Source: a phage
Assembly (NCBI GenBank): GCA_019844455.1
Contig: GCA_019844455.1_3938.1
Strand: one strand, 5' to 3'
Length of the DNA: 51,650 bases
Both the position numbers and the translations under genes were made by a program. Position 1 is the first letter of the stretch. Each line of letters starts with the position of its first letter. Below, in pieces: positions 23,162-26,666 of the stretch. Under the pieces are notes generated by a model. The model was not told where the DNA came from, ran no database searches, and was given only the letters and a program-made list of their open reading frames with translations.

Positions 23162-23677
23162 CTATTTAACCTCAAAAACTGGTTCAAGAACCAATATAAA
23201 GTCTACACAGTCATCTTCTTCATCCAGAATACCATCAAAGTTCTTAGGAACGAAGTCGAAGAGGTTCATCACAAAACAGTCAGAAGTAACCTTTATAGTT
23301 CCTCCCATGTTCTCTACAGTTAACACTGTACGACTTTCTTTTACCTCCCTCAGAAGATTACCCACAAAGTCATCTAAGAAGTACTTCATCAATGACTTAA
23401 AACCTTTAGGATAATCTGTACCAGAGTATGTTTCAATCTGAGGTACAAGCTTAACATCTATACTAGTCTTTGTTAAGAATGTGTTAGAGAACATACTATC
23501 AGGTAGCTTACAAACAGTCTTTCCAGTACCTTCATGTTCAATCTCAACAAAACCAGCTTCGTCGCCACATGTAACTATTTTAAAAGATGCTTCATTCTCA
23601 TACTGTGAAGCCATAAACTTTTTAAGCATTTCTTTAAGGAAATCTGCATGAGCATCTTGTAAGTAGATATCAATCAT
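23162..23677 (-). CDS. hypothetical protein
   Basis: ORF with AGGTGA RBS 6 nt before ATG at 23677 (track start at 23683 is TTG); acidic C-terminus. Confidence 0.5.
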   Translation of the reverse strand: MIDIYLQDAHADFLKEMLKKFMASQYENEASFKIVTCGDEAGFVEIEHEGTGKTVCKLPDSMFSNTFLTKTSIDVKLVPQIETYSGTDYPKGFKSLMKYFLDDFVGNLLREVKESRTVLTVENMGGTIKVTSDCFVMNLFDFVPKNFDGILDEEDDCVDFILVLEPVFEVK

Positions 23678-23690
23678 AATCAATCACCTA

Positions 23691-24050
23691 TTATGGGAAC
23701 AAGCACTTAATGTCATCGTTTTTAAAAACGAAACTTGTGTAGTTGTGACCTTCAACATCCAGCCAAACAGCCTGAACATCTACACCATCAAGGTTGTGGT
23801 AAAGTTCTTTGATGAAGTGGTCTTTCACAATCTGGCTGCTAGTTGTTTCCAGCTTAATGTTCGAGATTGCTGAACCTACAGCCATATAGCCCATGACACG
23901 TTTCTTCTCAGTATGCTTAATCTTACCATCTTTGTAAGCCATAATGAGATTGGAGAGAATCTTCACACCATAATACTTTTCAAGGTGAGTGGGTACGCCA
24001 TAAAAACCTAATGCGAAGTTTTCAGAGTGGATAATGTTTTCACGTTTCAT
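23691..24050 (-). CDS. hypothetical protein
   Basis: 119-aa ORF, RBS AAGG. Confidence 0.5.
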   Translation of the reverse strand: MKRENIIHSENFALGFYGVPTHLEKYYGVKILSNLIMAYKDGKIKHTEKKRVMGYMAVGSAISNIKLETTSSQIVKDHFIKELYHNLDGVDVQAVWLDVEGHNYTSFVFKNDDIKCLFP

Positions 24051-24051
24051 A

Positions 24052-24351
24052 TTAATCTGCCAACCTTAAATTAAAATTAACACCAAATTTTTCACAAACT
24101 TCCAACATATACTCAAGGGAGACGTTACCAGTGAGATGGATTATGTTGGATACACGAGCCTGAGAGATACCACAAATTTTAGCGACTTGCTCTTGAGAAA
24201 GACCTCTGGATTTAATCTCTCTCTTAAAACGATGTGCAACGAAATCTCTCATTTCGTCTACATCCATTGGACAAATATAACTCTCCATTTCAGCCTCTCT
24301 ATCAGCCTCCCAATCATCTTGTGGGGCATAAGGGTCAAAAACCTCATTCAT
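24052..24351 (-). CDS. XRE-family helix-turn-helix DNA-binding protein
   Basis: C-terminal LSQEQVAKICGISQARVSNI HTH; likely ATG start at 24351 (MNEVFDP) overlapping the upstream gene's stop (ATGAATGA). Confidence 0.65.
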   Translation of the reverse strand: MNEVFDPYAPQDDWEADREAEMESYICPMDVDEMRDFVAHRFKREIKSRGLSQEQVAKICGISQARVSNIIHLTGNVSLEYMLEVCEKFGVNFNLRLAD

Positions 24352-24556
24352 CTTTCTTCTTCCGTTTGCGTGAAGTGTCAATCAATGAATCTATGTTTGT
24401 AGCCCTAACCTTTTCACGTTCATCATTAAGATAATCATCAAGAGCCTTTTCAATCTGTGAATCATCTTGACAGATAACTGTAAAGACTGTAAAGCCGTCT
24501 GTATCGTCAATTACCTTACCATAACCGCTTCTGGGATGTAACTTTTTAAGAGCCAT
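24344..24556 (-). CDS. small protein translationally coupled to HTH gene (weak HicB-like resemblance)
   Basis: 70 aa; segment YGKVIDDTDGFTVFTV...IEKALDDYL loosely resembles HicB-type antitoxin N-domain; basic tail RKRKKKDE. Confidence 0.4.
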   Translation of the reverse strand: MALKKLHPRSGYGKVIDDTDGFTVFTVICQDDSQIEKALDDYLNDEREKVRATNIDSLIDTSRKRKKKDE

Positions 24557-24557
24557 A

Positions 24558-24941
24558 TCAAATACCTGTGCAGCTTCTGTTTTCTAAGAAATACTCAACA
24601 CCATACATAGCTTTTTGCATCAAATCTTCTTTAAACTGAATACGATGATTGAGCATAGCCTGTACATCAATATCATCAGGGTGCTTCTCTTTAATGTTTG
24701 CAGATTGCAGGAAATACTCTGCAAGAACACGATACTGATAGTCAGTTACCTTATCAGTCATCTCTGTTAAAGACTCTTCAGAGATTGGTTTAAGTAGTTC
24801 ACCTTTAGATAGGGCAACACCTTTAACAATCTGGCAAGTGTCTTCTGGAACACCTGATAAGTCCACATTTGGAAGTTCTGTTGCACTAACTGGTAAACTC
24901 ATTGCCATAACCGTTGCAGCAGCTAATAAAATCTTTTTCAT
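24558..24941 (-). CDS. secreted/periplasmic protein with signal peptide
   Basis: MKKILLAAATVMAMSLPVSA signal peptide; two Cys in mature part; RBS GAGGT. Confidence 0.55.
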   Translation of the reverse strand: MKKILLAAATVMAMSLPVSATELPNVDLSGVPEDTCQIVKGVALSKGELLKPISEESLTEMTDKVTDYQYRVLAEYFLQSANIKEKHPDDIDVQAMLNHRIQFKEDLMQKAMYGVEYFLENRSCTGI

Positions 24942-24986
24942 AATGACCTCAAAGTTATATTAAATTTTGTATTACATTGAGTATAA

Positions 24987-25033
24987 AAATAAGCTATAAC
25001 ACCTGACTTGTCAACAGACTTTATAGCTTATTT
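24987..25033. repeat. 13-bp perfect inverted repeat flanking a TTGACA-containing 21-nt spacer
   Basis: AAATAAGCTATAA (24987-24999) and TTATAGCTTATTT (25021-25033); on minus strand followed by T-rich tract. Confidence 0.7.
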
Positions 25034-25189
25034 GGCAGATTTTTTATAAGGCTACTGCCATCCTTCCATACCAGACCACACTATGCAAAACCAGACTTCA
25101 CATCACATTACCGTGCAATACATGACTTAAAAACCCTCTTAGAAGACTCTTAAGTGATGCTGGTGAGTACCCGTTGGTTTATGCTGCGC

Positions 25190-25217
25190 AGTATACTCAC
25201 CAAATTTTCTATGTCAA
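25190..25217 (-). promoter_or_regulatory. candidate sigma70-like promoter (minus strand)
   Basis: Minus strand reads TTGACA-N16-TATACT; would transcribe toward the 24941 gene through a ~240-nt leader. Confidence 0.35.
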
Positions 25218-25372
25218 CAACTTTATATAAAAGTCCTGATAGCTATATGTGTTACAAAACAGAAGACTGTGAACAAGACACCCATTGCAAAGGATGTGTT
25301 CAAAAGTTTACTTGTTATGTAAGACAATACAAAGACAACTAATGCAAACAGAATGATTGTGCTTAACATAGT

Positions 25373-26473
25373 TTACTCATAATCCCTGATAACGAGACCA
25401 ACAGGGAACTGTAAAGACCCCTTACGAGTCATCTTCTGGAACTGAACCGTTAAAGGTTTCCCGATAAACTCTTCAGGATGCTCAGCAAGATACTGTTTCT
25501 TCTCACGAGTAGTCTTCCATGAGACATCTACAAAGACGTTAGGAAGAGTCTCTACAACGAACTTGCCATGACCACGTTTATCGGTCTTTACACCAGTCAC
25601 TTTAAACTCTTCAGTGTGCATCTTCTTATGCTTAATCAAGAAGTATGAACGGTGACAACACTCATAGAAAGATTCTTCAGAGATTGAACGGTACATTGCA
25701 CCTTCAAACTTAGCTTCAACCCACTTATCATGAGCTTCATCAAACTCTTCCCAAGAATTTACACGGATAGTCTGTACAGGAACCACTCTACAGGTATCCC
25801 CAAGCTCAACAATAGGTGAACTATCAATAACTTCACGACGCTCAGGCCAAGATTTTGAATTGTCACAGATATCATACCAGTAGAATTTAAGAAGGTGACG
25901 GTCTGGATTGTCAGCATTCTTAATCATAGATACAATATCTTCTAAGTCCCAACCATGAGCATAAATCTCACCATCAAAGTCTTCAACTTGTGGATGTAAT
26001 TTAAGCAACAAAAGCAAATCTGGGATTAGTTCTGTTGGAACGTTGTAAACAGTATTCTCACGAGAATAAGCCGTGAAACTAACTGAATCAGCATCTCTTG
26101 AAATTCTACAACGGACACCATCAAGTTTTGGTTGAGCATCAGCAGGGAACTTCAAATACTTTGCATGACTAACCTTTGCAGCATCATGAGCAAGCTGTAC
26201 ACCTACCTTCTCAGTATTCTGTGCAGACTCTTTTGTGTAAGCATAACCTTTACGGTCAACTTGCTTTTTATACTTAGCAGCAACTTCAAAGAGAGCTTGC
26301 TGTTCAGCATTACGCTCATTCTTTTTACCGATGTTTTTAGGTTCTGCTGTATACTCTTCAAACATCATCTTGCCATTTTCTTTACCGTAGGTTGTAATAA
26401 CTTTGTCACCTACAGCAACACATGACCAAACGTTGAAGGAACCATCTTTATTTTGTTTGTACAGAATTGTCAT
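25373..26473 (-). CDS. ATP-dependent DNA ligase
   Basis: Motif I KLDGVR (PKLDGVRC); size ~366 aa typical of small phage ATP ligases; RBS GAGG before second ATG (MTILYK). Confidence 0.75.
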   Translation of the reverse strand: MTILYKQNKDGSFNVWSCVAVGDKVITTYGKENGKMMFEEYTAEPKNIGKKNERNAEQQALFEVAAKYKKQVDRKGYAYTKESAQNTEKVGVQLAHDAAKVSHAKYLKFPADAQPKLDGVRCRISRDADSVSFTAYSRENTVYNVPTELIPDLLLLLKLHPQVEDFDGEIYAHGWDLEDIVSMIKNADNPDRHLLKFYWYDICDNSKSWPERREVIDSSPIVELGDTCRVVPVQTIRVNSWEEFDEAHDKWVEAKFEGAMYRSISEESFYECCHRSYFLIKHKKMHTEEFKVTGVKTDKRGHGKFVVETLPNVFVDVSWKTTREKKQYLAEHPEEFIGKPLTVQFQKMTRKGSLQFPVGLVIRDYE

Positions 26474-26666
26474 TTTTAACCTCTGAGTGATACCAAGTAT
26501 TGCAAGCATTACATGCGTAAAGCTCTAAGTCATTTTTATCTGGTTTATGGAAACAGTTTGACCCACAACGACACCGGAATAGCTTACCATCAACACGAAG
26601 AATAAATGTTTCAAGCTCACCATCTTCTGTAAGAACTGCGTTCTTAAATTTATCTTCTACAGTCAT
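26448..26666 (-). CDS. small zinc-ribbon protein
   Basis: 72 aa with CRCGSNC ... CNACN cysteine clusters. Confidence 0.45.
   Translation of the reverse strand: MTVEDKFKNAVLTEDGELETFILRVDGKLFRCRCGSNCFHKPDKNDLELYACNACNTWYHSEVKNDNSVQTK

Follow-up and report, generated by a model that had tools for sequence, protein, structure and literature searches.

The best sequence and fold matches to the XRE-family protein described here, which corresponds to ORF85 of phage Felix O1, are XRE/Cro-C1 repressors of the HipB or HTH_37 type (PF13744, PDB 2a6c), small repressors with which it shares a five-helix HTH_3 domain, a long first helix, and a strand-like C-terminal segment. It differs from them in that it adds a 34-residue N-terminal tail, highly acidic, highly conserved, and not found in other proteins, and in that it has neither a HipA-type nor any other toxin partner. 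Like the C proteins (controllers) of R-M systems and the Aca repressors, ORF85 is a small XRE helix-turn-helix (HTH) protein encoded inside the operon that it presumably regulates, and its gene, as theirs do, sits in an operon whose small accessory genes follow a strong promoter. In contrast to the C-protein and Aca systems, ORF85 is not accompanied by a conserved C-box-like or inverted-repeat operator, the operon is long and runs into the genes for dihydrofolate reductase (DHFR) and thymidylate synthase (TS), and no R-M or anti-CRISPR gene was recognized. By analogy, an Aca-like or controller-protein-like role may be the closest functional parallel for this protein.

Two toxin-antitoxin systems also offer points of comparison. 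In Vibrio, the HigA2-type antitoxins are encoded in a layout in which a small gene comes first and is followed by the gene for a tailed protein with a C-terminal XRE domain. The genes for ORF86 and ORF85 share with HigB2-HigA2 and HigBA this arrangement of a small upstream gene that overlaps a gene for an N-tailed, C-terminal-XRE protein; unlike HigBA, ORF86 was not RelE/HigB-like in any search, the pair lacks an autonomous promoter and shows no mobility, and it was not found outside one phage subfamily. In HicB of the E. coli YdcQ type, a C-terminal HTH can be aligned with that of ORF85, but the N-terminal HicB domain is undetectable in ORF86 and HicA is missing.

The pair lies on the minus strand, as do all features given below, of a 51,650-nucleotide stretch of phage DNA (contig GCA_019844455.1_3938.1), here called the window. 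A sequence-only reading of the window had described a 70-aa open reading frame ending inside the start of a gene for a protein of about 100 aa with a C-terminal XRE-type HTH, and both parts of that description are borne out. Read from the sequence, the small-protein gene, ORF86 (24344..24556), encodes 70 aa (MALKK...KKKDE) and belongs to PHROG 4473, for which no function is assigned (E 2.5e-45). The XRE-family gene, ORF85 (24052..24351), encodes 99 aa (MNEVFDPY..., with its ATG at 24351), belongs to PHROG 1373, "transcriptional regulator" (E 1.2e-25), and carries Pfam HTH_3 at residues 43-93. Dozens of Felixounavirus genomes, among them those of Escherichia phage KEP2, Salmonella phage Meda, and relatives of Felix O1, match region 23600-25400 at 94-96% identity, and by nucleotide identity the source phage is itself a Felixounavirus. 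The two genes correspond to Felix O1 ORF86 (hypothetical protein, NP_944937) and ORF85 ("transcriptional regulator," NP_944934) and to genes 36 and 35, respectively, of phage Bas63, so the pair has been annotated for years. No functional study of either gene was found in those parts of the Felix O1 and Bas63 literature that were covered. The pair is thus a conserved and already annotated combination of a phage XRE regulator and an orphan small protein.

Two start codons have been used for ORF85. The Felix O1 RefSeq record has a 109-aa version that begins at an upstream TTG, and most other database records use the ATG. The ATG at 24351 appears to be the better start, because most records use it, because a Shine-Dalgarno-like GGAAG (GGAGG in relatives) lies 7 nt 5' of it within the small gene (24359..24363), and because in the most distant relative stop codons close the ORF85 frame eight codons upstream of the ATG, which also means that there is no conserved N-terminal extension. 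In comparisons between genera, ORF86 and ORF85 approach saturation at synonymous sites (pS 0.53-0.82) and differ little at non-synonymous ones (pN 0.11-0.31), a pattern of purifying selection that identifies both as genuine genes.

The stop of ORF86 and the start of ORF85 overlap by 8 nt, ATGAATGA, at 24344..24351 (...AAG AAA GAT GAA TGA / ATG AAT GAG), and the ORF85 reading frame is +1 relative to that of ORF86. Seven of the eight divergent lineages aligned retain the overlap; the eighth and most distant, L004, has TAAgATG, a 1-nt spacer in place of the overlap. We found no conserved RNA structure around the overlap (z -1.7, no covariation), and the single Rfam match there is at chance level (E 0.15). 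The pair belongs to a minus-strand operon of eight genes that runs from one or more promoters through ORF87, ORF86, ORF85, ORF84, ORF83, ORF82, and DHFR to TS. The ORF87/ORF86, ORF85/ORF84, and DHFR/TS junctions are 1-nt spacers, ORF83 and ORF82 abut with a 0-nt spacer, ORF82 and DHFR overlap by 4 nt, and only ORF84 and ORF83 are set apart, by 7-13 nt depending on the start codon chosen. Since nearly every junction is equally tight, translational coupling would be a property of the operon as a whole and is not special to the pair.

ORF87 (24558..24941), the first gene of the operon, lies 1 nt upstream of ORF86 and encodes a 127-aa protein with an N-terminal signal peptide; its PHROG, 4332, is without an assigned function. 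ORF84 (23691..24050; 119 aa; PHROG 4116) starts 1 nt past the ORF85 stop. No Pfam family was found in ORF87, ORF84, or ORF83. Further downstream, ORF82 encodes a zinc-ribbon protein, described as Lar-like and conditionally essential in the PhageMaP preprint on Bas63 (PMC11482910). Its match to Pfam Lar is weak (E 0.069).

The distribution of the pair is regular. The small protein is present in 260 phage records and the HTH protein in 261 (two Zymomonas records among them), always in one copy each, and both genes occur in essentially the same approximately 260 Ounavirinae genomes, always adjacent and in the identical place. This synteny is shared by Felixounavirus, Suspvirus, Mooglevirus, and unclassified metagenomic relatives, and ORF87 and ORF84 likewise co-occur with and adjoin the pair through all lineages sampled. 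An exhaustive search found no relatives of the small protein outside the Ounavirinae, and the searches run with the HTH protein found no full-length relative outside them. In the Erwinia relatives (Kolesnikvirus) and Yersinia phage P778 the genes ORF87 to ORF84 are missing, and the ligase gene is followed by one to three unrelated open reading frames and then by DHFR/TS. The whole ORF87-ORF82 block is missing there between ligase and DHFR/TS, which marks it as an accessory cassette found in the enteric branch and not as part of the replication core.

Sensitive profile and fold searches were run with both proteins; they gave an XRE fold for ORF85 and no HicB-like or toxin-like match for ORF86. 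In ORF85 the five-helix XRE/HipB-like DNA-binding domain, delimited with AlphaFold2 (AF2) and Foldseek, spans codons 35-93 (24073..24249), with the HTH proper at residues 53-72 (QEQVAKIC-GIS-QARVSNIIH) followed by a short C-terminal segment, VNFNLRL. Pfam HTH_3 (PF01381) matches residues 43-93 at E 4.9e-10 and 39.7 bits against a cut-off of 23 bits, and HTH_37 (PF13744) is just above its cut-off (28.2 bits against 27). In the AF2 model, residues 31-90 contain four helices at pLDDT 85-93, and the N-terminal approximately 30 residues, at pLDDT 57-60, contain one short helix at 13-23. The best Foldseek matches are 2a6c, HipB, DdrO, C proteins, and HigA2, at query-normalized TM scores of 0.45-0.61, with further matches to SinR, C.Esp1396I, C.AhdI, and C.BclI. 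Among PDB sequences, ORF85 matches 2a6c (6e-5) and, weakly, M. tuberculosis HigA2 (7ewc, 1.9e-3), and the PADLOC models for R-M "control proteins" match it weakly (5e-5 at about 21 bits). The recognition helix, ISQ(A/S)(R/Q)VSNI, is nearly invariant across genera. Because the matches to antitoxin-type HTH domains (HipB, HigA2, HTH_37) are equaled by those to R-M controllers and SinR, ORF85 is best described as a generic XRE protein: an ordinary XRE-type DNA-binding protein that, as judged from these comparisons, has no privileged link to antitoxins and is most likely an operon-encoded XRE/HipB-like regulator.

ORF86, in contrast, is a lineage-specific small protein. It has a basic N terminus, a core of an acidic beta-hairpin and a helix, and a basic C-terminal tail; its AF2 model is of low confidence (pLDDT 61), with strands at 15-19 and 22-25 and a helix at 32-69, and a Foldseek search with this model returned nothing with an E value below 5. 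Searches against Pfam, PHROGs, NCBIfam, PADLOC, and PDB sequences gave no match to a toxin, HicB, or defense family, and PHROG 4473 is the only family into which it falls. Among 1.84 billion representative proteins, a profile search recovered its own family and only one other protein, a 2,646-aa cadherin-repeat protein whose match to the hairpin region we judged to be spurious. Weak matches to DUF406 (E 0.023) and to YrbL also appeared, far under cut-off. ORF86 may be either a partner of ORF85 or an independent small effector.

A new point that emerges from the alignments is the uneven distribution of constraint within the two proteins. The most constrained segment of ORF86 is its C-terminal tail, codons 50-70 (VRATNIDSLIDTSRKRKKKDE; 24347..24409), which carries a +6 basic tail at its tip. 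Its pN is 0.02-0.04 among enteric-phage lineages and 0.17 to the most distant lineage, L004, compared with 0.13-0.42 among lineages for the N-terminal part of the protein (0.27-0.42 from the source phage). In ORF85 the corresponding segment is the acidic N-terminal tail, codons 1-34 (FDPYAPQDDWEADREAEMESY; 24250..24351), with 12 D/E, 1 R, and conserved aromatics; its pN is 0.01-0.03 among most enteric lineages, 0.11 to L010, and 0.28 to L004, and the rest of the protein, the HTH domain included, is less constrained than the tail (pN 0.17-0.29). In both tails synonymous sites are free to change (pS 0.38-0.81 in that of ORF86), which puts the constraint at the level of protein and not of an RNA or DNA element. 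The ORF85 tail motif was not found in other proteins, and a search with the joined tails for fusions or other contexts returned the same two families only. The two most constrained segments thus flank the gene junction and are of opposite charge, which hints at a partnership between ORF86 and ORF85 or at a shared, possibly host, target. The greater conservation of the acidic tail relative to the HTH domain could mean that ORF85 serves mainly to bind protein and not an operator.

No promoter is dedicated to the pair. The closest plausible intergenic promoter of sigma-70 type, TTGACA-17-TATTTT (24986..25014), precedes ORF87 and is annotated as a promoter in phage ASO1A. In a leader alignment of this promoter, TTGACA and TATAC(T/C) do not vary across 7 lineages. 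Two weaker matches that a promoter scan found inside the coding sequence of the pair are no more than expected by chance. About 175 nt further upstream lies a second, near-consensus promoter, TTGACA-16-TATACT (25190..25217; 11/12). Several relatives have this promoter type directly before their ORF87 homolog.

Around the -35 box of the nearer promoter there is a perfect 13-bp inverted repeat, AAATAAGCTATAA / TTATAGCTTATTT, with its arms 21 nt apart (24987-24999/25021-25033) and unique within the window, which the sequence-only reading had put forward as a binding site for the HTH protein. The comparison of lineages speaks against such an operator. The repeat is present in the source phage, SUSP2, Sf18, and L004, which share one promoter type, and absent from four lineages (L002, L003, L007, and L010, the four including Michonne and ESh22) that have a different promoter arrangement and an almost identical recognition helix. 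As RNA, it forms a hairpin (-15.8 kcal/mol, z -3.2) with a U-run behind it, and the diverged copy in L004 (-16.9 kcal/mol, z -3.2) preserves the stem by a single compensatory change and two G-U changes. A terminator-like element that overlaps the promoter fits these observations better than a protein operator does. No recurring palindromes were found within the window (no 6-mer inverted repeat occurs at least three times), and the half-site of the inverted repeat is no more common there than expected by chance. An AT-rich leader motif, tATAcAaAAtTTt.ATATAgG (24954..24974), just 3' of the TATACT, is shared by every lineage as a conserved element and occurs once in the window (its position-weight matrix finds the motif alone), with a dyad symmetry that is imperfect and inconsistent between lineages. 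Among the elements looked for, this motif is the sole, and weak, candidate for an operator.

Our results lead us to favor, tentatively and at somewhat less than an even chance, a reading in which ORF86 and ORF85 are a co-transcribed pair of an accessory operon, with ORF85 acting as an XRE regulator of host-type promoters and ORF86 possibly as its partner, and not as a toxin-antitoxin module. The two proteins would be co-transcribed and probably co-translated and would therefore be made at a fixed ratio. As a dimer, ORF85 would occupy an operator in at least one of the phage's host-type (sigma-70) promoters, the simplest target being the promoter of its own operon, and would limit or time the expression of the operon after infection, as R-M controllers or Aca repressors do. 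The basic C-terminal tail of ORF86 and the acidic N-terminal tail of ORF85 might contact each other or a common target. In Felix O1 only host-type promoters were found, and neither a phage RNA polymerase nor a modifier of the polymerase; its temporal regulation is stated as not known, and the expression of the neighboring genes ORF83, ORF84, ORF87, and ORF88 peaks at 25 min (PMC3185647). ORF85 and ORF86 are not among the genes listed in the RT-PCR table of that study (PMC3185647).

Speaking for such a regulator are the XRE domain, the confident five-helix model that matches operator-binding repressors, and the host-type promoter ahead of the operon, together with the matches to the PHROG "transcriptional regulator" family and the PADLOC control-protein models, the near-invariant recognition helix, the purifying selection, the co-occurrence of the two genes, the accessory nature of the block, the exclusively host-type promoters reported for Felix O1, and the constrained tails flanking their junction. 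Speaking against it are the lack of a recurring palindrome, the inverted repeat that is not conserved with the HTH and resembles a terminator, the poor symmetry of the leader motif, the low confidence of the ORF86 model, and the acidic tail of ORF85 being better conserved than its HTH domain. Felix O1-type phages are widely used for the typing and biocontrol of Salmonella and E. coli, and ORF85 is an obvious candidate for the regulator of transcription timing in these phages; if ORF85 and ORF86 do act together, they would provide a simple handle on the expression program of this phage group.

A first alternative, which we consider unlikely, is that the operon is an anti-defense or host-takeover cassette in which ORF86, and/or ORF87 and ORF84, is the effector and an Aca-like ORF85 damps a strong early promoter without any partnership with ORF86. 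The layout recalls that of acr-aca loci, with a strong host-type promoter, small, fast-evolving, lineage-specific proteins, and an HTH gene. Moreover, the N-terminal part of ORF86 evolves fast (pN 0.27-0.42 from the source phage to the other lineages), the accessory block is one that Kolesnikvirus and Yersinia phage P778 lack, and the same operon holds the Lar-like ORF82, conditionally essential in Bas63 according to the preprint (PMC11482910). However, ORF86 is without similarity to known anti-defense proteins, neither ORF86 nor ORF85 is mentioned among the counters or triggers of defense in the text on the Bas63 screen (PMC11482910), and an inverted-repeat operator conserved with the HTH was not found.

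It appears similarly improbable that the two genes are unrelated neighbors brought together by operon packing alone, with ORF85 acting, by way of its acidic tail and/or its HTH, as a takeover factor on host DNA, a nucleoid protein, or the polymerase and ORF86 working independently. Since all junctions of the operon are tight, the overlap carries no special information, and in the most distant lineage there is none; in addition, the acidic tail of ORF85 is more constrained than its HTH domain and no phage operator was found, both of which this explanation would accommodate. Against it stand the co-occurrence and adjacency of the two genes through all sampled lineages, although ORF87 and ORF84 share that pattern, and the position of the two most constrained segments, opposite in charge, on either side of the junction.

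A more elaborate version of the regulator proposal, to which we would give only a small chance, is a two-protein switch in which the basic tail of ORF86 binds the acidic tail of ORF85 and thereby turns its DNA binding on or off, so that the pair would be the missing temporal regulator of early-to-middle transcription in these phages.

The sequence-only reading had offered the pair as a toxin-antitoxin-like module or regulator cassette, and our findings treat the two halves of this label differently: "regulator cassette" is reasonable for a small protein and an overlapping XRE-type HTH protein encoded by a virulent phage, while the toxin-antitoxin architecture, whether of the HigBA or the HicAB type, is not supported. 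It would be very unlikely for ORF86 to be a toxin neutralized by the N-terminal tail of ORF85 in the manner of HigBA2, in a type II module for abortive infection or superinfection control. Such a module would have the gene order seen here, a small gene followed by that of an HTH protein with a conserved, probably disordered N-terminal tail and a C-terminal XRE domain. The oppositely charged, constrained tails would also suit it, as would the weak matches of ORF85 to antitoxin HTH domains (HTH_37; HipB, HigA, PezA), the NCBIfam ones among which are far below their cut-offs (the best antitoxin models score 20-23 bits against cut-offs of 47.7-290). On the other side, ORF86 belongs to no toxin family in Pfam, NCBIfam, PADLOC, the PDB, or the 1.84 billion representative proteins, and its predicted 70-aa hairpin-plus-helix structure looks unlike RelE/HigB or HicA. 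The pair is embedded in a long operon of eight genes without a dedicated promoter, and its distribution is neither patchy nor mobile, with one copy per genome in strict synteny and no homolog found in bacteria or on plasmids. The toxin-antitoxin reading thus fails on toxin identity, on operon autonomy, on distribution, and on the scores of antitoxin models. We conclude that the pair is very probably not a toxin-antitoxin module and that the overlap reflects the tight packing of the operon; as a toxin-antitoxin or HicB lead, it does not hold up.

The idea that the pair is a split HicB, with ORF86 as the N-terminal HicB domain and ORF85 as its DNA-binding domain, possibly rejoined by frameshifting, can hardly be right and is, at the level of sequence, effectively refuted. 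The weak resemblance of ORF86 to the HicB N-terminal domain on which it was built was not reproduced: no Pfam HicB or UPF0150 match appeared at an E value of 1 or below, and hhalign comparisons of the ORF86 family with E. coli HicB and with a seven-member HicB profile (E. coli hicB and six phage HicB homologs) gave a probability of 0.14% each. The low-confidence AF2 model of ORF86, two strands of a hairpin and one long helix, retrieved no HicB in Foldseek, there is no HicA-like gene nearby, and no fused ORF86-ORF85 protein was found in 5.8 billion proteins. A +1 frameshift fusion, for which the +1 frame of ORF85 would be suitable, was considered and rejected, as the junction has no slippery site and a fused homolog is lacking. 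What the reading does have in its favor is an alignment between the HTH of ORF85 and the C-terminal one of E. coli-type HicB (hhalign 86%, E 5e-6, 53 columns), and this alignment is a generic XRE similarity that is expected of any XRE domain.

Ahead of ORF87, the first gene of the minus-strand operon, lies a non-coding stretch of ~280 nt (24942-25222) that carries two tandem promoters and matches no family in Rfam. The upstream, near-consensus promoter (TTGACA-16-TATACT, minus strand) is embedded in a hairpin at 25161-25202, the 5' arm of which falls within the promoter spacer and the -10 box, with the 3' arm ~25-30 nt downstream. The complementarity of the two arms is kept across lineages despite wholly different arm sequences in each (5'/3' pairs: TGGTGAGTA/TACTCACCA, CCGGTAGTT/AACTACCGG, CATAGCAAGT/ACTTGCTATG, CCTGACGGGT/ACCCGTCAGG and TAGTGGGT/ACCCACTA), and the arms show strong covariation. 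An RNA initiated at this promoter could not form the hairpin that embeds it. Promoters of the same hairpin-embedded type also stand upstream of the ORF87 homologues in four related phage loci (L002, L003, L007, and L010).

A further hairpin of 14 bp, which the annotation of phage ASO1A lists as a terminator, stands between the two promoters (~25115-25155), and because of this position the upstream promoter might yield a short RNA of ~60-80 nt. The inter-promoter spacer of SUSP2 and Sf18 is occupied by G/T-rich GGT repeats. At the downstream promoter, the -35 box is surrounded by a 13-bp inverted repeat (24987-25033) whose hairpin fold (z -3.2) leads into a U-run, and this hairpin is preserved in a diverged relative through one compensatory and two G-U changes. 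The repeat is probably a terminator that overlaps the promoter and would act on transcripts reading through from either the ligase gene or the upstream promoter.

In the more distant Erwinia phage Ea_Tu10 (L019, 5591-6705) and Yersinia phage P778 (L020, 5546-6760), one to three unrelated ORFs separate DNA ligase from dihydrofolate reductase (DHFR)/thymidylate synthase, and the genes ORF87 to ORF84 are absent from this interval in both phages; these genes are a cassette confined to the enteric-phage branch. In Suspvirus, Mooglevirus, and some metagenomic relatives, the homologues of ORF84 and ORF83 are separated by an additional gene coding for 163-167 aa (L002, 3842-4333; L003, 2405-2908; L007, 3348-3851; L008, 3342-3842), which shares a 16-nt overlap with the end of ORF84 and is absent from the window.

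Within the operon, ORF87 (24558-24941, minus strand, 127 aa; PHROG 4332, function not assigned) starts with a typical signal peptide (MKKILLAAATVMAMSLPVSA/TE), and two of its cysteines are conserved. Its product is likely a periplasmic protein of a lytic phage and could serve, for example, to modify the envelope or exclude superinfecting phages. Among metagenomic versions of ORF86, the 70-aa protein, P0005, P0006, P0007, and P0009 either carry in-frame tandem duplications (FTVFTVFTV; DGFTDGFT) within the predicted beta-hairpin or have lost 12 residues of the helix, and the C-terminal tail is unbroken in all of them. [quoted passage not shown] Its orthologue in the model phage Bas63, gene 32, was termed Lar-like in the PhageMaP preprint (PMC11482910), where its essentiality in DH10B fell below that seen in three further hosts.

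Two small minus-strand ORFs lie at the ends of the ligase gene. Directly 3' of it, a very hydrophobic 48-aa ORF (25223-25369) probably encodes a two-pass membrane peptide; the annotations of Bas63 (as gene 38) and Michonne include it, that of Felix O1 does not. The other, a cysteine-rich 72-aa ORF (26448-26666), overlaps the ligase gene start and is the positional counterpart of Bas63 gene 40, which the PhageMaP preprint (PMC11482910) reports as one that triggers the hhe defence system.
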